From contig JALTUD010000013.1 in assembly GCA_027047735.1 (NCBI GenBank), forward strand, positions 1 through 26,865: 26,865 bases of DNA. Reading direction: 5' to 3'. Each line of letters starts with the position of its first letter. Position 1 is the stretch's first letter. The position numbers and the translations under genes were made by a program. Under the pieces are notes generated by a model. The model had not been told where the DNA came from and did not search any database. It worked only from the letters and a program-made list of their open reading frames with translations. Source of the stretch: Flavobacteriales bacterium (GTDB lineage: Bacteria > Bacteroidota > Bacteroidia > Flavobacteriales_D > Parvicellaceae). Shown here piece by piece: positions 3,961 through 24,776 of this stretch.

Positions 3961-4439
3961 CCTATCGTCTCTAAAGAAACTAAAATTCATTTTCTTAGCA
4001 CTTTTTTTACAAACGTTAGGGATTATTAAGCGACTGTGAAAAAACAGTTGAGTTTTTGAGCTAACGTAAAAATTTCGACTATTTTGTAATTGATTGATTA
4101 TCAATATTCTATTTTTAAGTTAGTTGGAGTATCCCTGACATGAATAAAATAGAAATCATAAAGCGTTTTTATTTTCCTTATCCTTCTTCAAAATTCTTTT
4201 CCATAGCTGGAGCTATGCAAAAGAATTTTTCATCGTCTAAGAAAACTAAAATTCACTTTCTTTCTTCCAATTTTATCCACGTTAGGGATAGAACGGCGTG
4301 TTTGAACTCCTTTTGTGTTGTTGCGTATATGCAACACAAAAGAGTGAGTAGTGATAGCCCGACCATTACGGCGTTAAAAAGTAGTGTAGTGGGGGTAGTG
4401 CGAACGAAACTGCTTTTTTATGTCGTAATGGAAACGCCC
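3957..4439 (-). repeat. Composite structured repeat, copy A (core 4279-4439; 161-bp hairpin 4130-4290; ~105-bp insert 4025-4129; half-arm ~3957-4024)
   Basis: Direct alignment by eye to copies B, C and D, e.g. shared GTTAGGGATAGAACGGCGTGTTTGAACTCC and GAGTGAGTAGTGATAGCCCGACCATTACGGC. Confidence 0.92.
4279..4439 (-). ncRNA. Flavo-1-like structured motif (core of copy A)
   Basis: GGGCG...hairpin...GGTCGGGCTATC...CTTTT-hairpin-AAAAG...CTATCCCTAACG. Matches my recollection of the Flavobacterial Flavo-1 motif; covariance model not run. Confidence 0.45.
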
Positions 4440-4450
4440 AAATTACATAT

Positions 4451-5710
4451 TTATAAAAACCAAGCTTCTCTTACTTTACTGAAAAACGATTCCCACGTCC
4501 AGTAATCGCCATCCCACGGAGGAAAGTAGATAAACGTAAGCCGAAGATTCATATAGATAAATAAGACAATAACCACTTTACTAAAAGTAATGATGTGTTT
4601 GTTTTGTACAGAAAAGAGAAGATTTAAAGTATAGGCAAGAGGCAAGGATAAAAAACTGTAATATTCGATAAAGGCTCGATGACCAAAGGCACTTCCAAAC
4701 CACCAACACCACCACGACGCAAAAACATAATAAGCCAACAATAAAATAACGGATATTTTTAGTGCTTCTTTGTTACCTTTTTTAAGCTGTAATATGATAC
4801 CAACCAAACTTAAAGTAAGTAGAGGGGAGTAGATTAACCAACCGTTCTGATGGCTGAAAAGGACCTTTATCAGTTTCGGATGCGACCAATTAAAACTTTC
4901 GCCCATAGCTCCGTATGAAAACATTAAATAATTGCCCGATACCTCGTGCCAATAGCTAATTTGTAATATCAAAAACAAGCCAAGAATCATAAGTCCGCCA
5001 AAGACATAAACATAATTTTTTTTGATATTTTCCCCTACTGTTTTCCATTCTTCTCTTGAGGTAGGGATAAGAAAAAGAAGACCAAAAGCATTGTAAGGCT
5101 TAATAACCAAAATCAATCCGGAAATCAATCCGATAAGTAGTGTGTATTTACGGAAATTGCTAGGTCTGACCTGCGTATAAGCATAAATTAAAAGAGCAAA
5201 AACAAAGAAATTATACACATGCGACATTCCGTCCTCAAAAACAGAGTAATAAAATAAATTTGTACCGATATAAATAATTGAAATAGTCCAAAAAGCAATG
5301 TTTTTATCGGGAAATCTTCGTTTTATTTCATTATACAAAATCACCAAAGCAACGGAAAGGTAAAAAGACGATGCTCCTAAAACGGCCACCGCATACGGTA
5401 GTGTGTAACCATCGGTTGCATAACCCAATAACCACGCAAAAAGATGAGCAACAAGAAAAAACGGAGCAATCAAAACAGCAATTCCAAAACTAAAAACACT
5501 CAATGGATTACCATTTTCCAACGTATGCACATATCTGCTTGGAGTAAACGAACCATCTACAAAAAAAGTAGGCAACCATTGGTAGTATCCCAAAGAATCG
5601 GTATTGTGATTCAGAGCAAGAACAAAATTTTCTTGATGAATGATTAATCCTAAAATAAGGTTAAACATGAAGAACACAAGAAACAAATAATTACTTTTTA
5701 TTTTAAACAT
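4451..5710 (-). CDS. Multi-pass membrane protein, GT-C-superfamily glycosyltransferase-like
   Basis: 419 aa with many hydrophobic segments. DSLGYYQWLP luminal motif after the first TM, then YYSVFEDGMSHVYNFF, LFSHQNGWLIYSPL and WWCWWFGSAFGHRAFIE, a pattern typical of Bacteroidota polyprenyl-sugar-dependent transferases. Confidence 0.65.
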   Translation of the reverse strand: MFKIKSNYLFLVFFMFNLILGLIIHQENFVLALNHNTDSLGYYQWLPTFFVDGSFTPSRYVHTLENGNPLSVFSFGIAVLIAPFFLVAHLFAWLLGYATDGYTLPYAVAVLGASSFYLSVALVILYNEIKRRFPDKNIAFWTISIIYIGTNLFYYSVFEDGMSHVYNFFVFALLIYAYTQVRPSNFRKYTLLIGLISGLILVIKPYNAFGLLFLIPTSREEWKTVGENIKKNYVYVFGGLMILGLFLILQISYWHEVSGNYLMFSYGAMGESFNWSHPKLIKVLFSHQNGWLIYSPLLTLSLVGIILQLKKGNKEALKISVILLLAYYVFASWWCWWFGSAFGHRAFIEYYSFLSLPLAYTLNLLFSVQNKHIITFSKVVIVLFIYMNLRLTFIYFPPWDGDYWTWESFFSKVREAWFL

Positions 5711-5817
5711 AGCATTAGTATAAAACTTTAAACCCTCAAACTTATCTATCGCATATTATCGATAATGCACATTTTGACTTTTCATAACGAAATCTTTTGC
5801 AGGTTTAAGCCTAAAAA

Positions 5818-5825
5818 CAAAGATA
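5818..5825 (-). promoter_or_regulatory. Candidate Bacteroidota sigma-70 -7 element for the GT-C-like gene
   Basis: Reverse complement TATCTTTG fits TAnnTTTG, about 110 bp upstream of the start. No clear -33 TTTG. Confidence 0.4.
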
Positions 5826-5867
5826 AAAGAAAATAGTTGTTAACTAACTTTTTAAAGATATTGCTTA

Positions 5868-6007
5868 GGGCGTTCCCATTACGGCATAAAAAAGCAATTC
5901 CGTTTTACTACACTACTTTTCAACGCCGTAAAGGTCGGGCTATCCACTATATCTTTTGCCCTCCAAAAGGAGGGAGGGCAAAAGGATGCCGTTCCTATCC
6001 CTAACGC
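5868..6007 (+). ncRNA. Flavo-1-like structured motif (core of copy B)
   Basis: Closest to the recalled consensus: GGTCGGGCTATCCACTATATCTTTT...AAAAGGATGCCGTTCCTATCCCTAACGC. Not model-verified. Confidence 0.5.
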
Positions 6008-6096
6008 GAGTCTGTCTAAAAACCTAATTTACAATAAAATTACACGTTGATTATCAGTGTTTAAGAGTTATGTTTCTTTGTTTTTTAGACTGTCTG
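6008..6096. mobile_element. Possible MITE-like insert with imperfect 15-bp terminal inverted repeats
   Basis: Left end GAGTCTGTCTAAAAA vs reverse complement of right end CAGACAGTCTAAAAA (12/15). It interrupts the repeat where copy D is contiguous. Confidence 0.4.
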
Positions 6097-6485
6097 AAGC
6101 AGGTCAGTGCAAAGAAAACGGATTTTTTCTTTAGACGATGAAAAATTCCTTTGTATATACTCATAATAATAAATTTATGAATCTTTCTTTTTTCCAAATA
6201 GTTCATTGCATTGAGCAAATCCCTAGCTAAGGAAATAAAAAATAAATAAGAATACTAAAAACATTTTATATCGTTTTTTTAGAAGATAAAACATATTAAT
6301 TATCAATGAAGTATTTAGATGTAATTAAAATTGTGCTAGACTAACACAAATACACATTTTGTCTATTCATAGCGAAAATGTTTACGGATTCAATGTAATA
6401 ACAGATTGGAAAAGCATATAACTACTCAAAAATAAAGACAAATGGATAAAAAAATATACTTTTACTTTTTTGTAAAATTGATATT

Positions 6486-8660
6486 GTGAGAGATGTAAAA
6501 ATTAACCTACTGTTACTTGTTTTATTCCTTGTCCTAATGAATATATGTAAGGGGTATGCAAATAATATTGATAGTTTACAACTACAACTAACAAAACAAT
6601 ACGATAGAAGCAAACTATATAATGAGTTAGCGGAAGAATATAAATCAAACTCTCAGCTGGACAGCTTGAAACTTTATGCGGATAGTGCAAGGATTGAAGC
6701 AATAGCAAAAGGCAACCAACTAGAGGAGGGAAATGCATATATAAATATAGGAGATTATCATTATTATGTTAGTCAATACGATTCTTCTATCTATCATTAT
6801 AATAAAGCGGTTTCATTATTCCAAGCTATAAATCAAAGTGAAGAAATAGCCAGTGCATATTCAAATATTGGTGCAATTTATTATACGATAAGTGATTTTG
6901 ATAAAGCTATTTACTTTTTTAGAAAAGCTGCAGAATATCAAAAGATTAATAATGATTTACAGGAGTTAGCAATTATTTACAATAATATTGCAACGGTGTA
7001 TTATCAAATAAGTGATTATGCTAATTCCATAGAATATTTCACTAAATCACTAGATTTAAAAATTGATAATAATAGCATAGCCAAAGGACTTAATAATATT
7101 GCCAGTGTTTATGAAAAAATAGGAAGCTACGATAAGGCAATTGATTACTATTACAAATCAATTCGTTATAGTGACCAATCTAATGACGAGCCTCTAAAAG
7201 CGACTACGCTTAATAATATAGCAGGTGCGTATAAAGATTGGGGGCAATATAAAAAAGCATTAGAATTGTATAATGAAGCATTACACATAAAAACAAAATT
7301 AAAAGATTTAGATGGTAAAGCTAATCTGCTAAATAATATTGGCTTAGTATATAAATTAAAGCGAGATAATTCGAAAGCGATAATGTATTTTAACGAAGCT
7401 AAAACTATTTTTGAGCAAGTAGGAAATCTTAAAAGGTTAGCAATTACATTTAGTAATATTGGAGCAATAAAAGAACAAGATAAAGAATACAACAGAGCAC
7501 TAAATGATTATACCAAATCATTAGAAATAAGTAAACAAATAAAGTCCCCTTATAATTCTGCATTGGGGTATTTAAATGTTAGTAGGATATATTTAAAAAT
7601 GAATAATCTACAGAAAGCCGAACTATTCCTAAATAAATGTATTATTGAAAGTAGAGAACATGAATTGAACTCTATTGAAATAGATGTTTTTAAAATGTTA
7701 TCAGAATTATACCAAGCTAAAAAAGAGTATAAAAAAGCATTGGACTATTACAAGCAGTATGAAATTATAAAAGATTCTATTTTTACAATAGAAAAACATA
7801 AGCAATTAAACAAACTGAATACCCAATACGAAACGGATAAAAAAAATAAAGCAATAGAATTCTTAAATATTCAAACAAAACAACAAGAACTTGAAATTAA
7901 AGCCAAACAGCAAGAAAGAAATCTTTGGTTGGGAATTAGTATATTAGCCTTTTTTATTGGGGTTATTTCACTATATTTTTACATTAATAAGAAAAAACTA
8001 TCCGATAAACTCAAAAAGAAGAATGATTTCATAGAGAAAATGTTGAACGAAAAAGATATCCTGTTGAGAGAAATTCATCACAGGGTAAAAAATAATTTAC
8101 AAATTATTTCCTCCTTATTAAATATGCAATCAAAATATTTAAGTGATGAAAAAACAAAAGCCATTGTTACAGATAGTCAAAATCGTATTAAATCAATGTC
8201 TTTGATTCATCAAAAATTATATCAGGAAGAAAATTTAACGGGTATAGATACTAATTTGTATTTTACAGAATTGATTGATAGTTTAAGTTTATCTTATGGA
8301 CTAGATAAAAAAGCTTTATCTTTTGTCATTGAGATAGAACCTCTTTTTTTAGATGTAGATACTTTGATCCCTCTGGGGTTAATAGTGAATGAGGTGATTA
8401 CCAATGCTTTTAAATACGGAGTTGATAAAAATAATGGAGCTTTTACTTTTATTTTTAGAAAAGTAAATGAAGAATTAGATTTGTTCGTAAAAGACAACGG
8501 ACAAGGTATTCACAAAGATTTTGAACCTAAAAAATCAAAGTCATATGGAATGAAGTTAATACATTCATTAGGTAAAAAATTAAAGGCAGATATTCATTTT
8601 AAGAATAATCAAGGACTTGAAATATCAATGATTATTCATAAATTTAAAATAGCATCATGA
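6486..8660 (+). CDS. TPR-containing membrane sensor histidine kinase (HisKA_2 type)
   Basis: N-terminal hydrophobic segment; about 8-9 TPR-like repeats (AxxYxNIGxxY); [23 protein letters not shown]; H-box [11 protein letters not shown]; N-box [10 protein letters not shown]; DNGQG and YGMKLI ATPase motifs. Confidence 0.92.
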
Positions 8661-9373
8661 AAAAAAGTAAAGTTAAAATATTAATTATTGAAGACGAGCC
8701 GATTATAGCTTCTGATATAGAGATGACTTTAGAAGATTTGGGTTATGATGTATTAGGAGTAGAAGATAATGCTTTTGATGCTTTATTATTTTTAGAAGAA
8801 AATATAGTGGATTTAGTTCTGTTAGATATAAACATAGAAGGAGATATAGATGGCGTAATGTTGGCAGAGGATATTAAAAAAAAATATCAAATTCCTTTTG
8901 TTTTTCTCACTTCAAACACTGATAAGCTGACTATTAACCGTGTTAAAAGAACTTCACCTTCAGGTTTTATTGTGAAACCGTTTACTGAGCATGATTTATC
9001 TTCAAATATTGAGATTGCTTTGTTTAAGAATAAGGAAAGGAGTCCACAAAAAAGAGAAATAATTAAAAATTTCTACATAAAAGAAAGAGGGGGATTAGTG
9101 AAGGTTAGTGTAAATGATATAAAGTTTATAAAAGCGGATGATAATTATTCAAAAATATTTACAATAGAAAAAAATCATTTTATTAGCTCTACACTTAAAA
9201 AAGTTGAAGAACGGCTGGATGCGTTAAGTTTTATTCGAATTCATCGTTCCTATATTGTGAATTTACATTTCATTGATAGGATAAAAGATGGTTATATTTT
9301 TATAGAAAACAATCAACTTCCGATAGGAAGAAGCTATTATGATAATTTGTTTAAAAGGATAGAAAAGTTATAA
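8657..9373 (+). CDS. LytTR-family response regulator (REC + LytTR)
   Basis: ATGA overlap with the kinase. [21 protein letters not shown] and VKPF receiver motifs; [11 protein letters not shown]...LPIGRSY LytTR domain. Confidence 0.95.
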
Positions 9374-9480
9374 GTTTGCTAGTATAATTTTTGCTTGATA
9401 TTTCCCAAATAATTACTGTAATTCTAATGTCTCAGATCTGATTTTGTAAATCAGATTCCTTGTTTTCAAATAAAAGGAAG

Positions 9481-9510
9481 TTGTTTTTTTCATATAAAGT
9501 TGTATCTTTA
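9481..9510 (+). promoter_or_regulatory. Candidate Bacteroidota promoter for the stand-alone PorP gene
   Basis: TTG-N19-TATCTTTA, one mismatch to TAnnTTTG. Confidence 0.4.
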
Positions 9511-9633
9511 TTCTCGTGGCAACTATTACGTAAAGAAAACGTTGTACTATTTGAACATTGTAAAGAGACGAAAAAAACTTTATAAAGTTCGTTTCAATAT
9601 TTAAGTGGTATATCCATAAAAGCGGTTATAATT

Positions 9634-10656: not shown

Positions 10657-10678
10657 TACCAATTAAATGTAAATCAAT

Positions 10679-10712
10679 AAAAAAGCCTTTAACATCTGTT
10701 AAAGGCTTTTTT
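10679..10712. terminator. Bidirectional Rho-independent terminator between the convergent PorP gene and ppa
   Basis: Perfect inverted repeat AAAAAAGCCTTTAACA-tc-TGTTAAAGGCTTTTTT. Confidence 0.9.
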
Positions 10713-10789
10713 GTTTTTAGTAGATTATCCTTAATTCCGCAAGTGATTTCGTTGTGAAAAGTCAAACTGCATATTATTATATTTAGAGC

Positions 10790-11458
10790 TTATACCAGTG
10801 AATCTTCTAATACTCCGAATTTTTCTCTATAATCGTTGTAACTTCTTCTGATTACTTCCAGTGCTTCTTCTTTTCCGTAAGTATGTGTAATTTCTACCTC
10901 AACTTTTTTGCCGTCTCCCGGTACGTTTTTATAGGTTAAGAAATAGTGCTTTAGTCGTTGGATAAGTGCTTCAGGGCATTTGCTGATGTCGTCCCATTCG
11001 CCGTACACTTTATCGCCTTTAAGTATGGCAACGATTTTGTCGTCTGCTTCTCCACCATCAATCATTCTAAATCCGCCGATAGGAATTGCAGGCACAATAA
11101 TATTTCCTTGTGCAATATCTCTTTCGGAAAGTACACAAATATCCAAAGGATCGGCATCTCCAACGATGTTGGTTCTTCCTGTTTTCTCCATACAATATTC
11201 TGCTACTTCTTTGTCGCAGTAAGTTTGTGGAACAAACCCATAGAGAGCAGGCATTATGTTTGAGAATTTTTGAGGTCTGTCCACCATGATGAATCCTGAT
11301 TCTTTGTGCACTTCATATTTTACCGTGTCGTGCGGAGTCATTTCAATAAAGGTCATGATTTCCTCCGGAGCTTTTTCTCCTATATTGATACCATGCCAAG
11401 GGTGAGCCATAAAACGTAAGGATAGTTTATCCCAAATTTCTTTTGTTGATTCGTTCAT
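10790..11458 (-). CDS. ppa: Family I soluble inorganic pyrophosphatase
   Basis: AHPWHG, KYEVHK, YGFVPQT, DADPLDICVL, DGGEADDKIVA and HYFLTYK motifs. Confidence 0.95.
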   Translation of the reverse strand: MNESTKEIWDKLSLRFMAHPWHGINIGEKAPEEIMTFIEMTPHDTVKYEVHKESGFIMVDRPQKFSNIMPALYGFVPQTYCDKEVAEYCMEKTGRTNIVGDADPLDICVLSERDIAQGNIIVPAIPIGGFRMIDGGEADDKIVAILKGDKVYGEWDDISKCPEALIQRLKHYFLTYKNVPGDGKKVEVEITHTYGKEEALEVIRRSYNDYREKFGVLEDSLV

Positions 11459-11552
11459 TATTCAAATTATTAAGATGAAATTATTTTTTATCCCTTTTTG
11501 GAAGTAATGATGCGTAAGGAAATCTTAAGCAAATTCAATAAAAAAGGGAAAG

Positions 11553-11583
11553 CAAAAGTACTACTTTTTGTGAAACTTACAAA
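11553..11583 (-). promoter_or_regulatory. Bacteroidota sigma-70 promoter for ppa
   Basis: On the minus strand, TTTG-N19-TACTTTTG: exact -33/-7 consensus. Confidence 0.7.
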
Positions 11584-11618
11584 TTGCAACAAAAACAAAG
11601 CAACGAAATCAGATTTTG

Positions 11619-13118: not shown

Positions 13119-13486
13119 TTTTTTTATCGTCTAAGAATACTAAAACTCGCTTTTTTAGTTCTCATTCCGTCCGCGTTAGGGATTGGTATCCCTAACGTGT
13201 ATAAAAAGAGCACCATAAAATGTTTTTATTTCCTTTATCCATCTTCAAAAAATCTTTCCATAGCGGGTGCTATGCAAAGATTTTTTTCATCGTCTAAAGA
13301 AACTAAAACTCATTTTCTTACCGCTATTTTTACACACGTTAGGGATAGAACGGCGTGTTTGAACTCCTTTTGTGTTGTTGCACTTATGCAATACAAAAGA
13401 GTGAGTAGTGATAGCCCGACCATTACGGCGTTAAAAAGTAATGTAGTGCAACGAAATTGCTTTTTTATGCCGTAATGGGAACGCCC
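13119..13486 (-). repeat. Composite structured repeat, copy C (core 13336-13486; 161-bp hairpin 13187-13347; junction palindrome 13174-13197; half-arm ~13119-13184)
   Basis: Aligns to copies A and D over the whole length. 21-bp terminal arms match 20/21. Confidence 0.93.
13336..13486 (-). ncRNA. Flavo-1-like structured motif (core of copy C)
   Basis: Same two-hairpin core as copies A, B and D. Family assignment from memory only. Confidence 0.45.
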
Positions 13487-13512
13487 AAAATAATATTAAA
13501 AACGAGAAGAAT

Positions 13513-14150: not shown

Positions 14151-14202
14151 TGAGTTATACCATTTAAACATTGAAATGGTATTATAGATAAATTCATTGA
14201 TT

Positions 14203-17200
14203 ATGAAAAAAATAAATTTCTACCTCTTGTTAACGACCTTGTTTTTAGGGGTTGGAGTAAATGCTCAAGGGATATACTTTGTTACGGATTCTACCGATAG
14301 TGGTAGCGGAAAGACTTTACGAAATGCCTTGGCGTCTAATGCTGATACGATTGTAATTGATGTGAAGGGTACTTTGGAATTAACCAGCTCATTGGTTTTG
14401 ACTAAAGATGTGGTTATATTAGGTCCTTCGGCTAAGCACTTTACGATAAATCCTTGGCAAATAACTGATGTTGATGGTCTTTTTAAATTTAATGGTCATA
14501 AATTGACGTTATCGGGGGTTCGGATTTCGGGAGGTGGTTATAATTCTTCGGTTCCTATTCTTCATATACATAACGCAAATAATGCTGATACTGTTCGTGT
14601 GATAGATTGTTTGTTTGAAAATACTGTTTTGCAAAACGGAAGTGGTTCGGTTCTTAATTATAATGTTGCTTTATTAAGTAAGCCAATTATTTTTTCTAGG
14701 TGTTCTTTTATTTCTGTTCGGGCTGATAATAATGGTGGGGCCTTTTATATAGCACAAGGAAAAGGAGCAGAGGTGTATAATTGTACGTTTAATGCTTGTA
14801 CCACGACATGGGGACAGGGCGGGAGAGCCGGTGCAATTTATATGTCAGGAGGAGATTTAACTTTGATTAATAATACCTTTTATATGAATAGCGATGATAG
14901 TGATGCTCATCATTTATATTTAGCAGGAAATTCGGTAAATTTGATTAATAATATTTTTGAAGAGGGTTCTACTCAAAACCTTATTAAAACCGGGACGATA
15001 GTTGCGGATTATTATCATAATAATTTTATTAGTAGTTATCTAACGGGGGCGGGTATTTCTTATGGTTTTACAGAAAACACTGCATCGGGAATATCAACTC
15101 CTTTAATTGAAGATGGTTTGGGACTTAAATATTTTTCACTTCCTGCCGGTAGTCCATGTATAGATACGTATTTGGGTTCTAATCCAAAAGTTTTAAGTCA
15201 AAAATATGACCAAAGACGAAGTTGGAGGAAGATGAAATCGGACATTGCCAATAGTTCTTATAGCATCGATGCCGGGGCAGTTGAATACTCGCCTTTTACC
15301 GTTACCAGTGCAGACCCTAACAATTCACCAGGAGGAATAAAGTCTGTTTTTTCAAGGTTAAACTCTTCACCCGTTTTTGGAAACAAAGCTATCGTTTTTG
15401 AAATTCCGACAAGTGATTTGCCTGCAGATATGAATATTGGACAGGATACTTTGGTAATTGATTATTCTGTTGCCGACCTAATTATTAATGGTTTTTCTCA
15501 GTCCGGTAGTGTTGTGGCGGGACCGGGTATAGATAGTACAAGTGTAACTTCTGCAACTATTCCAATTGTTATTAATGGAAATAATACTCATGGAAGTATT
15601 ATAGAAAATAGAGGGGCTAATGTTTTTATAGCAGGTGTAGATGTTATAAACGCTATTTCTTCTGGAGGAATTAAAGGGGTAGGTATTAATTTTACTGGTT
15701 ACAATTGTAGTATTGAAGGTTGTCACATTGGGGTGAATAGTATAGGAGAGTACGGAAGTAATACAAAAAACACCTACGGAATAACAGTTCCTCCGGGTAC
15801 TCAAGGGCTTTCAATAGGAGTAAATAATTATTATAATAATTTTTTAATGCATGTTTCTAGGAATATTATTTCGGGGAATGATTCTGCACAGGTGGAAAGT
15901 CTAACAGGAGGTGTAATAAAAAGAAATTTTATCGGGTTAAATGGTACAGGTACATCGGTAATAAACACCCCTTTTGCTAAAGGGGTTGTATTAGGTTCAG
16001 TTGATGCATATGTTGGTCTTTTTGGAGGAAAAAAACACGAAGGTAATTATGTAGCAGGGCAGGATAGTGCGTGCAAACTATATAATATGCAGGAAGTTCG
16101 TTCAAATGTTGTTGGATTTTTGTATGATAAAGTAGGTATAGCATCAAATAATACAGGGATTAAAATTGAGAATGGTTACGATGCAAAAATTATAAATAAT
16201 AGAATTGGAAATGTAACGAACGGAAATGCTTTATATTTATTAAATATAAAAGGTAATAATTCATTTCTTTATCCTGAACAAAATTCCGTAATTGCATTTA
16301 ATAAAATTGGGATAACTCTTAATAGACAATCTGCTGCAATAAATGGTTCCGGAATAAAAATATTATCGAATAGAGGTTCTGATGGAAATGGAGGTCATAT
16401 TTCTGATGCAAGGTTTCGAAAAATTCACCACAATGTTATTGCAAATTGTAACAGAGGGTTGGATTTTGATTTGTCATTGTTTCATCTTTATGATCCTAAT
16501 TCAGGTAATTACATTCCTGTCCCCTCTCTTTCTGTACCTTTTTCTGATTCAGTATATCGTAATGTTATAGGTTTTGACACTATTAACAATAATTCCTTTT
16601 CCAACGGCACGGGAATCTACATTGATTCAGGTGTACAAGCAATAACATTTTCTAGAAATATTATAGCAAACAATACAACAGCAGGTGTTCAAATTGCCGG
16701 AGTTGATAGTACGGAATATATCCATTTTTATAGAAATAAAATATTTAACAATGGTGGAGCAACGGGGCTAGGGATAGATTTGGATGATAATGGCACTACA
16801 AATTTAATTGGAAATAAACCTTATAGTAATGATAGTGTAGTACCACCTACACTAAGTTCTTCGATATATTGTCAAGGAGATTCTAAAGTTAAATTGGGTG
16901 TGAAGTTGTTTATTGAGGATTCGACTAGGTTTTACCGCATGGACTTTTATAAAACAGATTCTGACGGACAAGAAGGAAAAATCTTTTTAAAAGATACAAT
17001 GTTTGCTCCAAATACTCTTTCTCTAGGAAATAATATAGATACTTTATCTTTTATGGCAACATTTATTGCTATTAATGATTCGATAGTAGCAACGTTAACT
17101 CAATTGGATACAGCAACAATTGAGAATTATGGGTATTTAGATACGTTACTGGTGGCTTCAACTTCAGAATTTAGTAATTATTCAGTGATAAGGAATTACA

Positions 17201-19629
17201 GCCCTTCGATTGTAACTCCTTCGGGAGTTTGTGATGGGCAACAAATAATAATTCAAATTGCTGATGCGGGAACGATTACAAATTTTATGATAGATAATGT
17301 TTCTCAATTAAATAACCCGGCTCATTATACATTAACAACTGGACAAACATCTATAACTGTTAGTGTTGTTTCAGATTCGTTAGGATGCTCAGATAGTTTT
17401 ACTACTTCTTTATCCGTAAATCCACTACCAAATGTTACAGCAAATATTTTTAATAACAGAGATACAATTTGTCAGGGAGATAGTGCTGTTCTAATTGGGG
17501 TTCCGTATAATTCGACAAATGGTCAATGGAAGGTTGATTCTACATCATTTACAGATACGGTTGTATTTCCCGGAAACACTACAAAATATATATATATATT
17601 TACTGATGGAAACGGGTGTTCAAATAAGGATTCCGTTGTTGTAACGGTTAATCCATTACCGAATGCAATATTAGTTTCAGATTCAGTAGTTTGTTATGGT
17701 AATACTATTGATTTATCAGGTTTAGTTTCGTCAGTAATTCAAGTAGGAGAAACTTCTTATTGGTATAATGAGAGTGATGCTACAAGTACCCCACTAATAG
17801 CACAAACTATAATTATGTCGCAAGATAGTTCTTTTGTATATCAAGTAACAGACGTTAGTTCGGGTTGTATTAATCAAGATACGATTAATATTTTGGTTAA
17901 TTCATTACCGAATGTATCTGCTGGTATGGATTCTTCAATTTGTGGATCGGGAGATATTTATTTAAGTGGTTTGAATGGAATTACGCCGACTACAGGAATT
18001 TGGTACGATATAACGATGACTAATTTTATCAATAGCACTAATGTAGTTTCTGTTATATCAGATACAAGTTTTATATATCGAGTAACAGACGGAAATGGAT
18101 GTACTAACCAAGACACGGTAGATATTTTTGTAAACTCATTGCCTAATGTTTCAGCCGGACAAGATTCAATAATATGTGGATTAGGGACGATAAACCTAAT
18201 GGGGTTAATAGGAGTAAATCCATTAAATGGTACATGGTATGATAATACAATGAGTAATACAATACCTAACCCTGTTTCAGTTTCTTTAAATACAAGTTAT
18301 ATCTATAAGGTAATAGGTGTGGATGGTTGCATGAATCAAGATACTGTAGATATTTTTGTAAATCCATTGCCCAATGTTTCAGCTGGACAAGATTCGTCAA
18401 TATGCGGAATGGGAACTATAAATTTAAATGGGTTAATAGGAGTTACCCCATCAAATGGCACATGGTATGATACTACAATGATAAGTATTGCAAATAATAA
18501 TATTAATGTAGTTTCAGACACAAGTTTTATATATCAAGTAACAGCAGGAAACGGTTGTACTAATCAAGATACAGTAGATATTTTTGTAAATCCAAAGCCG
18601 ATATTAACGGTTAATTCAACCACTCCTGATAATTGTTCGGATGGAAGTGGAGAAGTAGTATTATTAACCACTTCGGGGACACCATCATACAGTTATAGCA
18701 TAGATGGAGCAACTTATAATCTCAATAATGTTTTTAGTGGACTTCAAGGGGGACAGAGCTATACATTTTATACTATAGATGATAATAATTGTTCAGACAC
18801 ATTAGCAATATATGTTCCTGTCGGTACATCAACTCCACCCTTGTCACCATCTTTAATCACACCTATCAAAATTTGTCAAGGATACAAAGAAACAATAACA
18901 GATACAATTAGTACAAATGCAAATTATGCACATACTTTTATTTTTTATGACTTTCCTGATGAAATAAATGTTAATTCAACAAATAACGCTGTTTTAATAC
19001 CGGAATCATTAAACGGAGTAGATTCAATTGTTGTTGTAGCTACCAATACAGACGGATGTACAAATAGCACTACAATAACAGATATTGATTTTACAGAAAA
19101 TAATCTACAAACTTCGCCAATCAATAACATTTGCCAAGGAGATAATCACACATTTGATGTTTGGGCTACGGGAGTTCCAGATAGTTTGTTGTGGAGTACA
19201 AACGGAACAGGTAGTGGAGAACAGGAAGACCAAGGTTCATTTACCATAAACAATTTAACGGATAACGAGGTTTATATAGCTGTAAAAGAGAATGATTGTT
19301 GGTTTTATGATACGATAAGTGTTACCTTTGCTATCGACTGTGAAGAAACCGTAACTAATGCTTTTCAACCAGATGGAGATATAGAAGAAAATTCTTTTTT
19401 CTATTTGGATGATGAACATGTTAACCCCGACCTATGGGAAAATACAGTTACTATTTACAATCGTTGGGGAGATATCGTGTTTAAAGAACAAAACTACGAT
19501 AACAAAACCATCGTTTGGAAAGGTAAAGGTCTTACCCGGGTAGATTTACCTGAAGGAACATACTACTATGTGTTGGATGTTCCGGAAATTTCGTACTCAA
19601 AAAAAGGTTGGGTATATTTAGATAGATGA
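14203..19629 (+). CDS. Large T9SS type-B CTD (gliding-motility-associated C-terminal domain) surface protein: CSLREA-like N-terminus, parallel beta-helix repeats, Ig/PKD-like repeats
   Basis: ATG 14203 (MKKINFYLLL signal peptide) preferred over TTG 14197. VTDSTDSGSGKTLRNAL; LPAGSPCID...DQRR...DAGAVE (choice-of-anchor-Q-like); FNNGGATGLGIDL; C-terminal IYNRWGDIVF...LPEGTYYYVL...GWVYLDR. Confidence 0.9.
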   Translation: MKKINFYLLLTTLFLGVGVNAQGIYFVTDSTDSGSGKTLRNALASNADTIVIDVKGTLELTSSLVLTKDVVILGPSAKHFTINPWQITDVDGLFKFNGHKLTLSGVRISGGGYNSSVPILHIHNANNADTVRVIDCLFENTVLQNGSGSVLNYNVALLSKPIIFSRCSFISVRADNNGGAFYIAQGKGAEVYNCTFNACTTTWGQGGRAGAIYMSGGDLTLINNTFYMNSDDSDAHHLYLAGNSVNLINNIFEEGSTQNLIKTGTIVADYYHNNFISSYLTGAGISYGFTENTASGISTPLIEDGLGLKYFSLPAGSPCIDTYLGSNPKVLSQKYDQRRSWRKMKSDIANSSYSIDAGAVEYSPFTVTSADPNNSPGGIKSVFSRLNSSPVFGNKAIVFEIPTSDLPADMNIGQDTLVIDYSVADLIINGFSQSGSVVAGPGIDSTSVTSATIPIVINGNNTHGSIIENRGANVFIAGVDVINAISSGGIKGVGINFTGYNCSIEGCHIGVNSIGEYGSNTKNTYGITVPPGTQGLSIGVNNYYNNFLMHVSRNIISGNDSAQVESLTGGVIKRNFIGLNGTGTSVINTPFAKGVVLGSVDAYVGLFGGKKHEGNYVAGQDSACKLYNMQEVRSNVVGFLYDKVGIASNNTGIKIENGYDAKIINNRIGNVTNGNALYLLNIKGNNSFLYPEQNSVIAFNKIGITLNRQSAAINGSGIKILSNRGSDGNGGHISDARFRKIHHNVIANCNRGLDFDLSLFHLYDPNSGNYIPVPSLSVPFSDSVYRNVIGFDTINNNSFSNGTGIYIDSGVQAITFSRNIIANNTTAGVQIAGVDSTEYIHFYRNKIFNNGGATGLGIDLDDNGTTNLIGNKPYSNDSVVPPTLSSSIYCQGDSKVKLGVKLFIEDSTRFYRMDFYKTDSDGQEGKIFLKDTMFAPNTLSLGNNIDTLSFMATFIAINDSIVATLTQLDTATIENYGYLDTLLVASTSEFSNYSVIRNYSPSIVTPSGVCDGQQIIIQIADAGTITNFMIDNVSQLNNPAHYTLTTGQTSITVSVVSDSLGCSDSFTTSLSVNPLPNVTANIFNNRDTICQGDSAVLIGVPYNSTNGQWKVDSTSFTDTVVFPGNTTKYIYIFTDGNGCSNKDSVVVTVNPLPNAILVSDSVVCYGNTIDLSGLVSSVIQVGETSYWYNESDATSTPLIAQTIIMSQDSSFVYQVTDVSSGCINQDTINILVNSLPNVSAGMDSSICGSGDIYLSGLNGITPTTGIWYDITMTNFINSTNVVSVISDTSFIYRVTDGNGCTNQDTVDIFVNSLPNVSAGQDSIICGLGTINLMGLIGVNPLNGTWYDNTMSNTIPNPVSVSLNTSYIYKVIGVDGCMNQDTVDIFVNPLPNVSAGQDSSICGMGTINLNGLIGVTPSNGTWYDTTMISIANNNINVVSDTSFIYQVTAGNGCTNQDTVDIFVNPKPILTVNSTTPDNCSDGSGEVVLLTTSGTPSYSYSIDGATYNLNNVFSGLQGGQSYTFYTIDDNNCSDTLAIYVPVGTSTPPLSPSLITPIKICQGYKETITDTISTNANYAHTFIFYDFPDEINVNSTNNAVLIPESLNGVDSIVVVATNTDGCTNSTTITDIDFTENNLQTSPINNICQGDNHTFDVWATGVPDSLLWSTNGTGSGEQEDQGSFTINNLTDNEVYIAVKENDCWFYDTISVTFAIDCEETVTNAFQPDGDIEENSFFYLDDEHVNPDLWENTVTIYNRWGDIVFKEQNYDNKTIVWKGKGLTRVDLPEGTYYYVLDVPEISYSKKGWVYLDR
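17896..18585 (+). repeat. Three tandem intragenic 76-78-aa Ig/PKD-like repeats
   Basis: VN(S/P)LPNVSAGxDSxICG...WYD...NQDTVDIF starts at 17896, 18130 and 18358, with the next VNPKP at 18586 (periods 234, 228, 228 nt). Confidence 0.9.
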
Positions 19630-21101
19630 TTATGAAAAAGATTTATATTAAATACATAAGTTTATTATTGGTGCTCTTTTTTATAAAGAAAATAGGTGCT
19701 CAGGGTTTTAGTGCTTTACCAGATACTATTTGTTCTAGAGGGATGGTGACGCTAACATACACCCCTACCGGACAAGTATCTTCGGAAATAAAATTATATA
19801 GAGATAATATTCTTATTAATAATACGAGTAATATTTTTTCGATGTACTCATATTCAGATTATCCATTAAACAATACAGGAGGGACAATAACGATAACGTA
19901 TAGTATCGAAGTAACTATGACGGATGGTACAGTTATAACAGATAATGCTTCTGTTGTTGTATATCCCGCACCACAATTATCCGTAGCTGATTTTATAGTT
20001 TCGGATGTTAGTTGTAATGGTAATCAAAATGGTTCTATTACCCCAAATATTGATTATTTTACAGGAAATAATAGCGGAGCTCCTTTTTTGTATTATTCAA
20101 ATACTTTTTCAAATACATCTTACACTCTCGTAACAACAACGAACTTTAATCTAAGCGGACTCGCAGGGGGCGATTATTATTTTTTTATAAGGGAAAACAA
20201 TCAACTAACTTGCAATAGTGATACGATTACAATCACCGTAAATGAACCCCAGAGTATAAGTTATGATTCCGTGAATATTATAGACGATAACTGTGGACAA
20301 CATTCAGGAATGGTTATTTTTCATGGGTTAACGGGAGGTGTTTCACCTTATGTCTTTACTGATGGTTCAACAACAACATATGATAATATAAACGATAGCG
20401 TGATAATAAACCTAACTAATAATTTTTATCAATTCACAATAATAGATGCCAATAATTGTAGCTATAATCTATTTCCTCCCAACAATCAAAATGCTTTTAT
20501 TGTAAGCGACTCAGGAAACGGAGATGAACCTGAAACACCAAATCTACCTCAGGAACAAATAGTTTGTGAAAACCAATCCTTGCAATTAAACGATAATAGC
20601 GGATTGCCACATTTTTATTATTTTTCAGGATCTGACAGTACATTGTTTTATTCGCCCAATTCTACCATTAATATTCAAAACCAGACTTTATTACAAAATG
20701 ACTCTCTCTATGTTTATGTTATAGAAACAACAGGAACGTCAGCGGGATGTATTAGCGATGTTGTAGCCATAGACTTAATACAAAAAGATTGTTCTTTTAA
20801 CCCCGATAGCGTAGATGTAACCTATAATGCTTTTAGTCCAAATGACCAACAAAATCCCGAAAACAATACTTTTGTAATTGACTTAGAGTATATTGATGAC
20901 CCAAACGTTACAGATGTAAATGTAACCATTTATAACCGATGGGGAGACATCGTCTATCAAACAGAAAATTATGATAATAAGAACGGGTGGAACGGGGGTA
21001 CGTTTAATGAAAGTGCACTTCCGGAAGGAACGTATTACTACATCATCAATGTAAATTCAAAAAAATACGTCAAATCAGGATGGGTCTATTTAGATCGATA
21101 A
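19626..21101 (+). CDS. Second T9SS type-B CTD protein with SprB-like repeats
   Basis: ATGA overlap with the upstream gene; signal peptide; VSCNGNQNGSI...GLAGGDY and DDNCGQHSG SprB-type repeats; IYNRWGDIVY...LPEGTYYYII...GWVYLDR. Confidence 0.9.
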   Translation: MIMKKIYIKYISLLLVLFFIKKIGAQGFSALPDTICSRGMVTLTYTPTGQVSSEIKLYRDNILINNTSNIFSMYSYSDYPLNNTGGTITITYSIEVTMTDGTVITDNASVVVYPAPQLSVADFIVSDVSCNGNQNGSITPNIDYFTGNNSGAPFLYYSNTFSNTSYTLVTTTNFNLSGLAGGDYYFFIRENNQLTCNSDTITITVNEPQSISYDSVNIIDDNCGQHSGMVIFHGLTGGVSPYVFTDGSTTTYDNINDSVIINLTNNFYQFTIIDANNCSYNLFPPNNQNAFIVSDSGNGDEPETPNLPQEQIVCENQSLQLNDNSGLPHFYYFSGSDSTLFYSPNSTINIQNQTLLQNDSLYVYVIETTGTSAGCISDVVAIDLIQKDCSFNPDSVDVTYNAFSPNDQQNPENNTFVIDLEYIDDPNVTDVNVTIYNRWGDIVYQTENYDNKNGWNGGTFNESALPEGTYYYIINVNSKKYVKSGWVYLDR

Positions 21102-21112
21102 AAACGAATAAA

Positions 21113-22045
21113 ATGAAATATCTTAGCTCAATAATGATTCTTGTTTCTTTGTGTTTTTTCTTCAAAAAAGGCTGGGCACAACAAGACGCACTTTATAGTC
21201 AATATATGTTTAATCCCTTGGCGTTAAACCCTGCTTATGCAGGAACTAGAAATACACTTAGTGGTGTTATGTTGTACCGAAACCAATGGGTAGGAATGAG
21301 CGGAGCTCCGCAAACAGCAAGTTTGGCGGTTCATAGTCCCATAAAAGGTAAAAAATTTGCTTTAGGATTAAACCTAATGAGCGAATCCATCGGTCCAACA
21401 CAAAACAATGTCTTTTTAGGTACCTATGCCTATCACGTAAACGCAGGCAAAGGTAAACTTTCTTTTGGGCTTCGTGGCGGATTTTATTCCACAAGTATAG
21501 ATTACAATAAATTGCATTATGTAAATGAGCAAGGAAAAGTAAGAGGAAGGTATCAAAAATCTTCCGCGAATTTTGATTTTGGAATGTACTATCACACTGA
21601 TAAGTTTTATGGAGGTATTGCCATTTCACATATAGGAAATCCAAAAGTAAAGTTTAATGGTAGTGATGCTTTATTGCCTTTACAAGCACATTACGTGGCG
21701 TTTGTCGGTAACGCCTTTGTGATTAATGAAAATCTGGTAGTAAAACCTTCCGCAGTTGTAAGATATACAAATGGAGCACCTTTCAATTACGATATAAATA
21801 CGAGTATTTTATTCCAAAAAGTACTATGGTTGGGAGTGTCTTATCGCTCTAATACCTCAAAAATTAACGAAGCAAGTTTGGTTTTTGTAACGGAGTACAA
21901 CATAACAGAATCATTTAGATTAGGGTACAGCTATGACTTTAATTTAGGAGCGATAAAACGTTACAATTCCGGTTCGCATGAAATCTTTTTGGGTGCAGAT
22001 TTATACATCAAAAGAAAAACATCGGTGTCACCAAGATTTTTATAA
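21113..22045 (+). CDS. PorP/SprF-family T9SS membrane protein
   Basis: ATG 21113 (MKYLSSIMILV signal peptide) preferred over 21080. QQDALYSQYMFNPLALNPAYAG, YRNQWVG, LGYSYD and SGSHEI motifs. Confidence 0.93.
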   Translation: MKYLSSIMILVSLCFFFKKGWAQQDALYSQYMFNPLALNPAYAGTRNTLSGVMLYRNQWVGMSGAPQTASLAVHSPIKGKKFALGLNLMSESIGPTQNNVFLGTYAYHVNAGKGKLSFGLRGGFYSTSIDYNKLHYVNEQGKVRGRYQKSSANFDFGMYYHTDKFYGGIAISHIGNPKVKFNGSDALLPLQAHYVAFVGNAFVINENLVVKPSAVVRYTNGAPFNYDINTSILFQKVLWLGVSYRSNTSKINEASLVFVTEYNITESFRLGYSYDFNLGAIKRYNSGSHEIFLGADLYIKRKTSVSPRFL

Positions 22046-22067
22046 ATTACTTTAGAAAACAAGGAAA

Positions 22068-24407
22068 ATGAAGTTAATAAAAAAACTAAATAAAATAGTG
22101 TTGCCAATGCTATTGTCTTTATGGGTAACACAATTTATTGCTCAATCAAATGAGCAAAAAAAATATACAAAAATTACAGAATATGAAGTGTTACCGGTTT
22201 TAGGAGTCAACACAAGTTACAGTGAGTTTAGTCCGGTCTTATTGGGGCAAGAATTTATCTTTACCTCAGACAGAGAATACGATATTAAAACATTGGGAGA
22301 AGGAAATTGGAAAAAAACAAATCATTTTAATCTATTTAAGGCAACGTTTAAAGATATTTTTGCTGACACCATACAATTAGTTCGGATACGGATTTTTGAT
22401 AACAATCTATTAATGGATGACCACGTCGGGCCTATAGCTTTCAACAAATCGGGAGATGAAGCAATAATTACCATTGTCAGCCACAAAGAAGACAAACCCT
22501 TTGCTAAATCCACCGCCTATCCGCAATTATACAAAACACAAAAAATAAAAGGGCGTTGGAAAAATATCGAAAAACTTCCCTTCAATCAAAAAGGAGTATC
22601 AATGGGACAAGCCTGTTGGTCGCCGGATGGGAAGAAACTTTATTTTGTTCAAAATACAAGTCCCGGAACAGGAAAACATGGAAACGGAAATATTGTTTAC
22701 ATAGAACGTAACGGCGACTCTTGGGGTAAAATAACCAAGGTAAAGGAATTAAACACCAAAGAAAATGAAGCCTTTCCCTATCTTATTGATGATAAAATTT
22801 ATTTCGCTTCAAATCGAAGCGGAGGACTCGGAGGTTGGGATTTATACGTTAGCCAATGGAAAAACGGAAAGTGGTCAGAACCTCAAAACCTTGGCAAAAC
22901 AATCAATACAGAAGCAGATGAATTTGCTATGATATTTAACGTTAATAAAGAAAGTGGCTATTTTTGTTCAAACAGACCGGGAGGTAAAGGACAAGATGAT
23001 ATTTATAAATTCCATAAAATCGAAAAAACACTTGTCGAAAATCAAGCGATTTCAGGAGTCTTAACATTTATGTATTTAGATGGAAAATCAACAGAAGGTT
23101 TGGAAGTAGGTGTATTTGACGATCAAGGAAATTTAATTACCAAAGCAACAGCTGATGCCAATGGAAAATTTGTATTCAAAAAATTACCGCAAGACAAAAA
23201 ATATATCTTTAAAATGTTAAACACCGATGAAGAGGTAGAAATGAACCTCAACGATGGTGAACTGATATTAATATCGAATAACAAAGGAGAGTTTGTCTTC
23301 AGAAAATTAAGTAGCAAAAGTGTCGGAACATTAGCCCTTATCGACGAAGAAGACTACGACCTTATCACGGGCGAAGGTGAACTAGGAGGACAATTTGTCT
23401 TTAAAAAATTAAAACATAAAAACCCCGAAGGTCTGGAAGTGTACTTAATAGACGAAGACGGAAACATTATACAAAAAACAACCACAGATAAATACGGAAA
23501 TTTTATTTTCAAAAAAATACCGCGAGGAGCAAATTATCTTATCAAATCACCCGAGGGAGAAGAATTTGATATTCTTATCTTCAATAAAAAAGAAGAACTC
23601 ATCGCCACCCTAACCAAGGGCAAAGACGGTAAGTTTGTGTACCGAAAACTAAAATCTCAAACAGGAAATTACAACTTGGACGTAGAGGAAGAAGATTTAG
23701 TATTCATCGAAAAAAGAATTGCCATAACCGGACAATTCGTTTACCAAAAATTAAAGACCGAGCAAGTAGGCGTATTAGGAGTTGAGGTGCACGATGAAAA
23801 CCAACTGATGCAAAAAACAACATCAACCCCGGAGGGTGATTTTATGGCACTCAACCTAAAACCACGTGATTTATACAAATTTCGAATCGAAGACGAAAGC
23901 AAATTAAAAGAAGAACCACAACTAAACATCACCAATCGCCATCACCAAACCGTAGCTGTTATTAACAGAGAAGACGACGGATTTTACATTTACTCAAAAA
24001 CTAAAGGACTAACCGTTGGAGATTCAGTAATTAATGTTGAGGTCATTCAAATCGAACAAACCGATATACAAGACACCCAAATCATCTATTACGAAAATAA
24101 TGAATACACACTAACCCCCGACGACAAAGAAATATTAGACCAACGCATAAAAGAGCTAAAAGAAAACCCAAAATTACTAATCCGTGTAGAATCCTATGCC
24201 TCAACCAAAGGGTCAGAAGAATACAACAGAAAATTAACCCAAAAACGAAAATCCGAAGTCATAAAATACCTCACTCAAAAAGGAGTACATCAATCACGCA
24301 TAAAAGCACTCGCCTACGGAGAAGAGCGAACACAAGAAGAACAAGACGAAGAACAACAACGACTAAGCCGAAAAACCGAACTAACACTATTTACACTAAA
24401 AAAATAA
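22068..24407 (+). CDS. PD40-propeller + prealbumin/CnaB-like repeats + OmpA-like C-terminal domain protein (PorE-like)
   Basis: EFSPV...FTSDR, YFASNRSGGLGGWDLY and YFCSNRPGGKGQDDIY PD40 repeats; repeated EGLEV.L.D..GN.I....TD..G.F.FKK.P; C-terminal KGSEEYNRKLTQKR...V..YL...G.....I.A.AYGE. Confidence 0.85.
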   Translation: MKLIKKLNKIVLPMLLSLWVTQFIAQSNEQKKYTKITEYEVLPVLGVNTSYSEFSPVLLGQEFIFTSDREYDIKTLGEGNWKKTNHFNLFKATFKDIFADTIQLVRIRIFDNNLLMDDHVGPIAFNKSGDEAIITIVSHKEDKPFAKSTAYPQLYKTQKIKGRWKNIEKLPFNQKGVSMGQACWSPDGKKLYFVQNTSPGTGKHGNGNIVYIERNGDSWGKITKVKELNTKENEAFPYLIDDKIYFASNRSGGLGGWDLYVSQWKNGKWSEPQNLGKTINTEADEFAMIFNVNKESGYFCSNRPGGKGQDDIYKFHKIEKTLVENQAISGVLTFMYLDGKSTEGLEVGVFDDQGNLITKATADANGKFVFKKLPQDKKYIFKMLNTDEEVEMNLNDGELILISNNKGEFVFRKLSSKSVGTLALIDEEDYDLITGEGELGGQFVFKKLKHKNPEGLEVYLIDEDGNIIQKTTTDKYGNFIFKKIPRGANYLIKSPEGEEFDILIFNKKEELIATLTKGKDGKFVYRKLKSQTGNYNLDVEEEDLVFIEKRIAITGQFVYQKLKTEQVGVLGVEVHDENQLMQKTTSTPEGDFMALNLKPRDLYKFRIEDESKLKEEPQLNITNRHHQTVAVINREDDGFYIYSKTKGLTVGDSVINVEVIQIEQTDIQDTQIIYYENNEYTLTPDDKEILDQRIKELKENPKLLIRVESYASTKGSEEYNRKLTQKRKSEVIKYLTQKGVHQSRIKALAYGEERTQEEQDEEQQRLSRKTELTLFTLKK

Positions 24408-24410
24408 TTT

Positions 24411-24560
24411 GGGCGTTCCCATTACAGCATAAAAAAGCGGTTTCGTTGCACTACACCACTTTTTAATGCCGTAATGGTCGGGCTATCACTACTCACTCTT
24501 TTTGCCCTCAAAAGGAGGAGGGCAAAAAGGAGTTCAAACACGCCGTTCTATCCCTAACGT
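24411..24560 (+). ncRNA. Flavo-1-like structured motif (core of copy D)
   Basis: Same core as copies A, B and C. Family assignment from memory only. Confidence 0.45.
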
Positions 24561-24776
24561 GGGGCATGTGAGTGCAAAGAAAACGGAGTTTAGTTTTCTT
24601 AGACGATGAAAAATTCTTTTGCATAGCACCAGCTATGGAAAATAATTTTGAAGAAGGATAAGGAAAATAAAACCGTTTTGTTGTGCTCAGATGTTCCATG
24701 TTAGGGATACAATCCCTAACGCGTGTAAAAAGAGCGGTAAGAAAATGAGTTTTAGTTTCTTTAGACAATGAAAAAA
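24411..24776 (+). repeat. Composite structured repeat, copy D (core 24411-24560; 161-bp hairpin 24549-24709; junction palindrome 24700-24720; half-arm 24711-24776)
   Basis: Reverse-complement counterpart of copies A and C. Begins 4 nt after the OmpA-domain gene stop. Confidence 0.93.

Follow-up and report, generated by a model that had tools for sequence, protein, structure and literature searches.

The stretch of DNA analyzed here, called the window throughout, is the 26,865-nucleotide contig JALTUD010000013.1 (contig C13) of genome G000, a 2.87-Mb Flavobacteriales metagenome-assembled genome (MAG) from hydrothermal-vent metagenomes (35.5% GC, 718 contigs, 90.9% complete). It carries a 161-bp palindromic repeat, hereafter the unit, in three full copies and in partial form. 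Each unit is followed immediately by a second repeat of ~145 nt, hereafter the Flavo-1-type module, the first half of which matches Flavo-1, an RNA motif filed in Rfam as RF01705 (Weinberg et al. 2010, PMC2864571).

An earlier note on the window had described three units of exactly 161 bp at 4130–4290, 13187–13347, and 24549–24709, and re-reading of coordinates and lengths bore this out. The outer 21-bp arms pair at 18/21, 20/21, and 17/21 positions in the three copies, and six of the eight non-Watson–Crick outer-arm positions are G:T on the strand reading TATCCCTAACG(C/T)G..., i.e., the plus strand of the window at copy D and the minus strand at copies A and C. All three window copies, and 222 of the 232 distinct genomic copies, contain the hairpin CATAGC-N4-GCTATG together with the adjacent G.G (C.C on the opposite strand), and the inner stem covaries between copies as had been described. 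Thus, the initial observation was confirmed in every detail, in the window and genome-wide. The repeats of the window are given below; for full copies, the strand is the one that folds well, and R1 denotes the covariance model used to score them.

4130..4290, minus strand: full unit, copy A, 161 bp, matched by R1
13187..13347, minus strand: full unit, copy C, 161 bp, R1 score 166.8 bits
24549..24709, plus strand: full unit, copy D, 161 bp, R1 score 165.7 bits
3956..4023, minus strand: half unit covering model positions ~97–160 in the orientation of copy A and ending in GTTAGGGAT (family D3)
13120..13183, minus strand: half unit abutting copy C, with the junction GTTAGGGAT-TGG-TATCCCTAAC
24712..24779, plus strand: half unit abutting copy D, with the junction GGGATA-CA-ATCCC
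6099..6157, plus strand: partial unit in a fourth repeat cluster, the 5' arm up to the central hairpin (families D11 and D19)
4277..4445, plus strand: Flavo-1-type module starting with the unit's own GTTAGGGATA end, RF01705 score 32.8 bits (below threshold)
13334..13497, plus strand: Flavo-1-type module after copy C, RF01705 score below threshold
24397..24562, minus strand: Flavo-1-type module adjoining copy D, RF01705 score below threshold
5858..6021, minus strand: Flavo-1-type module, RF01705 score 62.7 bits (E = 1.1e-11 at 5929–6021)

The last of these is the sole module of the window above the Rfam gathering score of 42 bits, the modules beside the three units reaching 26.6–32.8 bits. The RF01705 matches reach no farther into the unit than its last ~20 nt and otherwise lie in the adjoining module, and no Rfam family matches the unit itself. 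Open reading frames (ORFs) overlapping the units are only spurious, repeat-borne frames. The half unit at 24712..24779 is 94% identical to the corresponding half of copy C, not to that of its neighbor copy D. The partial unit at 6099..6157 is parted from its own TATCCCTAACGCG end (5996–6010) by ~85 nt of other sequence; this interruption of the variable arm (window 6000–6099) is bounded by the short inverted repeats AGTCTGTCTAAAAA / TTTTTAGACTGTCT and may be another small insertion.

Copy number, fold, and strand preference

Using an nhmmer profile, we retrieved 626 non-redundant unit matches from G000, of which 249 were full length and 377 partial, on hundreds of contigs. The length distribution, whose tabulation the earlier note had proposed, proved narrow: 240 of the 249 full copies (96%) fell within 159–162 bp, with 167 copies at 161 bp, 38 at 162 bp, 27 at 160 bp, 8 at 159 bp, and 9 at other lengths. 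Yet the median pairwise identity among genomic copies was 75%, which indicates that length is held through much sequence change. By region, identity was 53% in the outer stem (positions 11–29 and 133–151) and 97% in the terminal 10 + 10 bp. The terminal inverted repeats TATCCCTAAC / GTTAGGGATA, which give the unit its TATCCC.../...GGGATA ends, are invariant in >97% of copies and continue into the covarying stem. The copies form 11 subfamilies with at least four members each, and some singletons are chimeras of two subfamilies whose arms do not pair.

The unit is AT-rich and forms a single rod. We took its structure from folds of individual copies, since RNAalifold applied to all 232 distinct copies gave a poor consensus. 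When these 232 copies were folded, the mean minimum free energy was -66.6 kcal/mol for one strand versus -45.9 kcal/mol for the other (Wilcoxon p = 8.5e-40). With DNA parameters, 150-nt pieces of copies A, C, and D gave -31.8, -26.1, and -29.4 kcal/mol on the better strand (z = -7.3, -5.8, and -7.3, respectively), compared to -21.4, -16.5, and -23.7 kcal/mol on the complementary strand, and none of 200 shuffles folded as well as the better strand. The strand asymmetry therefore persists with both parameter sets used.

We also analyzed how the stem has changed between copies. In each of the 11 subfamily consensi, 58–61 of the 73 pairs are Watson–Crick, 4–7 are G:U, and 0–1 are A:C, amounting to 59 G:U versus 1 A:C over all 11. 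Two-sided compensatory changes separate the subfamilies at 29 stem pairs. In a representative alignment of 23 rows, 32 pairs changed on both sides, compared to 19.4 ± 1.8 after shuffling (0/500 as high), and 86.5% of cells paired, compared to 37–52% when the partners were slid. Within subfamilies, private changes converted Watson–Crick pairs to G:U in 105 cases and to A:C in 61 (p = 8e-4), and divergence from the subfamily consensus was 2.7% in stems and 6.9% at unpaired positions.

The conserved part of the rod is a one-strand core composed of an invariant loop, GACGAUGAA / UGAAGAAG(U), followed by the apical stem GCAUAGC-N4-GCUAUGG with its G.G mismatch. Non-canonical positions are conserved at G.G 73:90, at G.A 54:110, and at the tandem G.A/A.G 60:103 and 61:102; these positions sit within the invariant loop GACGATGAA / TGAAGAAG, and purine-rich internal loops are likewise kept. 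A transition that sets the two arms apart appears as G:T in one strand and as A:C in its complement, to which a cruciform would be indifferent, so that a coherent bias implies a strand that folds alone. The compensatory changes exceeding every shuffled and slid control, the G:U excess, and the kept mismatch all persist in many copies, and the strand-specific, single-stranded fold that had been proposed from three copies stands. Together, these results indicate that a specific strand must fold by itself, be it RNA or single-stranded DNA, probably with a protein bound to the conserved core of the folded strand.

A third palindromic element of ~155 nt, which we term W (TCAATGCAATAAAC...GTTTGTTGTTTTGAGCA), was found in 29 places in G000, within units of different subfamilies and at one fixed site, right after GCTATGC. 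Its carriers include contigs C6, C39, C190, C207, and C253 among others, and none lies in the window; the example on the reverse strand of C6 is located by the motif AGATTCAAAAATTC (~120 nt upstream, 40 nt downstream). This arrangement suggests a nested hierarchy of site-specific insertions.

Relatives, target sites, and arrays

We compared G000 with its repeat-rich sister genome G005, the congeners G001, G003, and G006, and G073, from another genus of the same family. BLAST found the unit in congeners only. With R1, full-length matches of 159–163 nt were obtained in G006, G001, and G073; these copies have the termini TACCAATT...AATTGGTA and are solitary, not beside a Flavo-1-type module. Scanning one genome per species for the core pattern ATGAA-N11-13-ATAGC-N4-GCTAT-N11-13-TGAAGA then matched at least 67 stretches. 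Among the matches listed were Aquimarina muelleri DSM 19832, Aquimarina sp. RZ0, an uncultured Aquimarina, and the Chitinophagales chromosome OZ244113.1 (G078), together with MAGs of Saprospiraceae, Lentimicrobiaceae, Bacteroidales, and Chryseobacterium. With R1, the majority of these copies aligned over their full extent at 158–164 nt, and a minority were of 145–153 nt or truncated. Conservation among the relatives covers the loop and the apical hairpin, and the termini are lineage-specific (TACGATTTACGG..., TACCAGTTCTAC..., AGACATTATTACG..., and TAACCGTCATGGG...), with complementarity kept throughout. In the cross-lineage alignment, which is fitted to R1 and hence leans toward it and which holds many near-identical Aquimarina rows, 88.4% of cells paired (63% shuffled, 42–46% slid), both sides had changed at 59 of 68 pairs, and G:T outnumbered A:C by 217 to 53, the bias recurring in every lineage.

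A. muelleri carries at least 36–40 copies of 160–161 bp with 97–100% identity, and 18 full copies, 91–100% identical, were retrieved from the Chitinophagales chromosome. On the latter, 14 of the 18 lie on the same strand, chromosome-wide and with no obvious replichore switch. The core pattern was also matched exactly in two contigs of a viral collection, IMGVR GVMAG-S-1093511-40 and IMGVR_UViG_3300046044_000387.

Target sites could be read from these relatives. Identical flanking triplets, TTA or TAA, bordered 17 of the 20 A. muelleri copies inspected, identical T-N-A flanks (TAA, TTA, TGA, or TCA) bordered 15 of 18 Chitinophagales copies as read from the printed ends, and five of the seven solo copies of G006, G001, and G073 showed the same pattern. 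A 3-bp T-N-A duplication is the trace of a staggered double-strand insertion by a DDE-type transposase, and part of the IS5 / PIF-Harbinger superfamily typically leaves it; to our knowledge, neither HUH single-strand transposition nor integron recombination produces it. In G000 and G005, no target duplication was seen, and the units abut GCGTTAGGGAT plus 2–3 nt in fixed orientation. The G005 orthologue of window 24549–24711 lacks exactly one unit (163 nt), with flanks 92–94% identical, and the half unit that remains in this cluster has a different variable arm.

The anatomy of the G000 repeats follows a strict grammar. Arrays, ~670 genome-wide, are strictly co-oriented and consist of an optional half unit, zero to three units, and a Flavo-1-type module. 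They include 124 solo modules, 83 of one unit plus module, ~81 of a half unit plus module, 45 of half unit, unit, and module, and 14 of two units plus module; just 12 units stand alone. The module is present in 514 copies, and solo modules begin sharply at GCGTTAGGGATAG. In both G000 and G005, the termini of the unit (TATCCCTAAC...GTTAGGGATA) are identical to this 5' end of the module (GCGTTAGGGATAG...), so that in most arrays the GTTAGGGATA end of the unit is also the first stem strand of the module. The sequence ...AGGGAT followed by TG (commonest), TGG, or CG precedes 87% of units, and the spacer is independent of the unit's subfamily. Neighboring units resemble each other less than random pairs do (0.69 versus 0.73), and none of 101 adjacent pairs reaches 95% identity; this argues against local tandem duplication and for arrays built by separate insertions. 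We also rejected 5'-truncated retro-copies as an origin, given discrete module boundaries and a search that recovered no reverse transcriptase.

The unit and Flavo-1 are thus coupled, and both are high-copy intergenic repeats of Bacteroidota. The unit differs from Flavo-1 in having no RF01705 match, in being an AT-rich single rod, in its folding strand, and in standing alone in other genomes. The module folds better on the strand opposite to that of the unit (-64.8 versus -54.8 kcal/mol), where G:U pairs number 1551 versus 506, so that a co-oriented unit and module prefer opposite strands for folding. The Flavo-1-type module also bears an extra hairpin (GCCCGACCATTACGGCG...CGTAATGGGAACGCCC). 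Flavo-1 matches have been found to lie sense, antisense, or outside transcripts (PMC9723704).

With respect to genes, the well-folding strand of the unit was sense to 81 and antisense to 49 of 130 co-directional gene pairs, the corresponding numbers for arrays with a full unit being 41 and 27. Copies occupy all intergenic contexts, including positions antisense to both neighbors, as with copy C in the window. GC skew of the flanks relative to array orientation was positive in 53% of cases (p = 0.29), and a link to the replication strand was therefore rejected. Neither the direction of transcription nor that of replication strictly dictates orientation.

Several further features of the window were recorded. 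The gene at 4451–5710 (minus strand) encodes a 419-aa multi-pass membrane protein that has no Pfam family and weakly matches the putative glycosyltransferases LA_3751/LA_3752; it is tightly bracketed by two inverted Flavo-1-type modules. An 1810-aa ORF at 14197–19629 contains, at 17614–18601, five tandem coding repeats of 228–249 bp that are 67–83% identical, and the surrounding genes include PorP/SprF and Por_Secre_tail proteins, which makes the ORF probably a repeat-domain adhesin secreted by the type IX secretion system. At 10676–10715, convergent genes are separated by a perfect bidirectional terminator-like hairpin (AAAAAAGCCTTTAAC...GTTAAAGGCTTTTTT), which gave spurious sub-threshold Thr_leader matches on both strands.

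Mode of movement and competing explanations

We consider that the unit is probably a nonautonomous mobile element, i.e., a miniature inverted-repeat transposable element (MITE), belonging to a Bacteroidota-wide family that has here been retargeted to Flavo-1-type repeats. Such a family would be defined by its fixed length of ~161 nt, by a rod hairpin whose stem is free in sequence but pairs, and by the invariant one-strand core. Its usual movement would be insertion at T-N-A with duplication of 3 bp, as in the relatives, and these duplications point to a double-strand transposase of the DDE type acting in trans. In the lineage of G000 and G005, new copies would land beside the 5' motif of the module, or beside the same motif ending another unit, always head to tail, with a 2- to 3-nt spacer and without duplication, generating arrays of a remnant or half unit, any number of units, and a Flavo-1 module that resemble bacterial interspersed mosaic elements (BIMEs). 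Such landing might proceed by the inverted-repeat targeting (IR-targeting) of copy-out-paste-in elements or through a 163-nt circle recombining at the shared 11- to 13-bp motif. Among the traits of a MITE, the short, noncoding, and dispersed high-copy form, terminal inverted repeats, and presence/absence polymorphism at orthologous sites (the G005 cluster described above) are present.

This reading places the unit near several known systems. Like Correia/NEMIS of Neisseria, ERIC/IRU, and RUP, the unit is short and noncoding with terminal inverted repeats, lies between genes in tens to hundreds of copies, and can form a long hairpin as strand or transcript, and its relatives make a short target duplication (T-N-A, compared to TA for Correia). 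It differs from these MITEs in its conserved center, its species-specific covarying termini, its fixed length of ~161 nt, and its one-strand G:U bias; moreover, its parent insertion sequence was not found, and in G000 it is inserted at the end of another repeat without duplication. The flanks in Aquimarina and Chitinophagales resemble the TNA/TWA duplications of IS5 / PIF-Harbinger as grouped in ISfinder, but we found no IS5-like element whose ends matched, and PF13359 (DDE_Tnp_4) and PF13586 (DDE_Tnp_1_2) are absent from both the A. muelleri and the Chitinophagales genome. A described MITE of Cardinium (240 bp, IS982-derived) is unrelated (PMC9769881).

For landing in G000, the closest likeness is to IR-targeting, which yields oriented IRL-IRR (left- and right-end) junctions in IS30 and IS911, with 2-bp staggering in IS30 (PMC9333248). 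In its anatomy, the unit resembles this mode in lying beside a sequence like its own end, in strict orientation, with a 2- to 3-nt spacer and without duplication, and it is this anatomy that suggests the mechanism. It differs in that no IS30/IS3-type (rve) transposase was found in G000 and that the targeted motif also belongs to another repeat.

We searched for a mobilizing enzyme among some transposase families, in assemblies of which all but one are draft. G000 gave no match to RVT_1, TnpB (PF07282), or rve. The ends of its four DDE_Tnp_1 genes, ISAs1-like CAGGG... and TAGTTAACC..., are unrelated, and the PF01609 elements inspected in A. muelleri and the Chitinophagales genome are IS982-like with ends AACCTGAGTTCG. 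Other candidates were rejected: the multi-copy ORFs of G000 encode secreted proteins and peptidases, the 419-aa gene at 4451–5710 is a multi-pass membrane, glycosyltransferase-like protein, and a weak rve-like ORF beside one A. muelleri copy lacks ends that match. In A. muelleri, the 12-nt terminus matched at two extra places, both of them further MITE copies, located by genes for a peptidase M28 and a DUF885 protein.

Several results weigh against the MITE reading. The families tried yielded no autonomous element with ends like those of the repeat, whether in G000, in A. muelleri, or in the Chitinophagales genome, and, since G000 itself shows no target duplication, the mechanism is carried over from its relatives. 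Conservation is reversed compared to an ordinary MITE, the center being kept across orders while the termini are species-specific but complementary. Double-strand cut-and-paste also gives no reason for a strand-specific G:U bias, and neither does array orientation help, its bias relative to genes being just weak (81 versus 49) and a link with GC skew not having been found. The combination of a conserved center, freely changing but pairing termini, and a fixed length is left unexplained by known mechanisms.

That combination is what an alternative explanation addresses, in which movement takes place as a folded single strand: an enzyme would read the apical motif, cut at a set distance from it at the foot of the stem, and rejoin the strand at its target. 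The process would resemble the action of integron integrase on folded attC sites, of XerCD on the attP of CTX phage, and of HUH enzymes on the ends of IS200/IS605. The fixed length would act as a molecular ruler, and the termini would need only to pair. This agrees with the G:T bias in every lineage, with the asymmetry under DNA energy parameters, with variable yet complementary termini around an invariant center, with a length that is invariant over several orders, and with insertion in G000 beside a fixed 11- to 13-nt motif that is regenerated at the other end without duplication. The CCCTAAC/GTTAGGG of the unit also resembles the ends of attC sites, RYYYAAC/GTTRRRY. However, 3-bp T-N-A repeats, which HUH enzymes and tyrosine recombinases do not make, flank most copies in two genomes, neither G000 nor G005 has a Y1 gene, and GC skew, a proxy for the lagging-strand template, shows no correlation. 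In addition, unlike integron arrays, in which every ORF cassette is closed by an attC, all cassettes point the same way, and intI lies adjacent, the units stand back to back with no cassettes or ORFs between them, on hundreds of contigs and in both orientations, and the termini of their homologues are quite different. We regard movement as a folded strand as unlikely.

Equally improbable, in our view, is that the unit is chiefly a structured RNA on a mobile chassis. Here, read-through transcripts or transcripts of its own would form a 161-nt rod from the well-folding strand, with purine-rich internal loops (K-turn- or loop-E-like, with tandem G.A) and the G.G mismatch serving as protein-binding or processing sites. 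Neighboring messages would thereby change in stability or termination, and selection on the RNA would keep the fold. The tolerance of G:U but not A:C pairs and the conserved G.A/A.G and G.G positions fit this explanation, as does the sense orientation of the well-folding strand at 81 of 130 co-directional gene pairs. Short metatranscriptome contigs also cover the Aquimarina-type element, but these contigs show neither strand nor ends and may stem from DNA carry-over. No RNA library was listed as containing the window's own sequence. Conversely, the orientation bias is weak, copies antisense to both neighbors occur (copy C among them), the unit belongs to no Rfam family, and RNA function alone does not explain a fixed total length that includes the termini.

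Kinship to IS200/IS605 or to repetitive extragenic palindromes (REPs) and their RAYT enzymes, which the earlier note had raised as an inference, was not supported. In this explanation, the unit would be a REP/BIME-type repeat maintained by the host, or an IS200/IS605-derived palindrome-associated element, served by RAYT/TnpA; likenesses exist in the imperfect, strand-biased palindrome, in mosaic BIME-like clusters with a second repeat family, and in the Y1_Tnp genes of G001, G003, and G006 and many relatives, but Y1_Tnp (PF01797) has no match in G000, at 90.9% completeness, or in G005, and the Y1 loci of the three congeners have no unit or module alongside. By definition, REPs are 20- to 40-bp palindromes in which one end bears an unpaired tag, GTAG or CGTC (PMC3733652). 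The unit, at 161 bp and with terminal inverted repeats, has neither tag at its ends; its sole CGTC lies inside the conserved internal loop, and CGTC-tagged REPs were rejected on size and architecture. The IS200/IS605-derived elements, for their part, have subterminal hairpins with neither terminal inverted repeats nor target duplication, whereas the unit has terminal inverted repeats and one hairpin over its whole length, and its relatives carry T-N-A duplications; only the fixed neighboring motif in G000 is alike. This explanation is very unlikely.

Returning to the preferred reading of a MITE, its mix of features is unusual for a bacterial element of this kind: a core kept in several orders of Bacteroidota, species-specific covarying termini, a fixed length, and a strand-coherent G:U bias. 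The orphan Flavo-1 repeat thereby gains its first concrete interaction, serving another element as its landing site. In G000, the unit and the module occupy ~75 kb each, together ~5% of the genome, and fragment the assembly into 718 contigs, and such repeat-driven fragmentation is a practical problem for MAGs of the group. A. muelleri DSM 19832 is cultured and holds ~40 near-identical copies, which opens the mechanism and any RNA to bench study. As a tentative and rather doubtful extension, the family could be a phylum-wide mobile element whose essential part is the one-strand apical hairpin motif rather than the ends, with a protein that would bind the folded DNA or RNA and act at a set distance, at the foot of the stem. 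If true, this would account for the length of ~161 nt, for terminal sequences constrained solely by pairing, and for retargeting, here to the end of Flavo-1 repeats, by way of a changed terminal stem.

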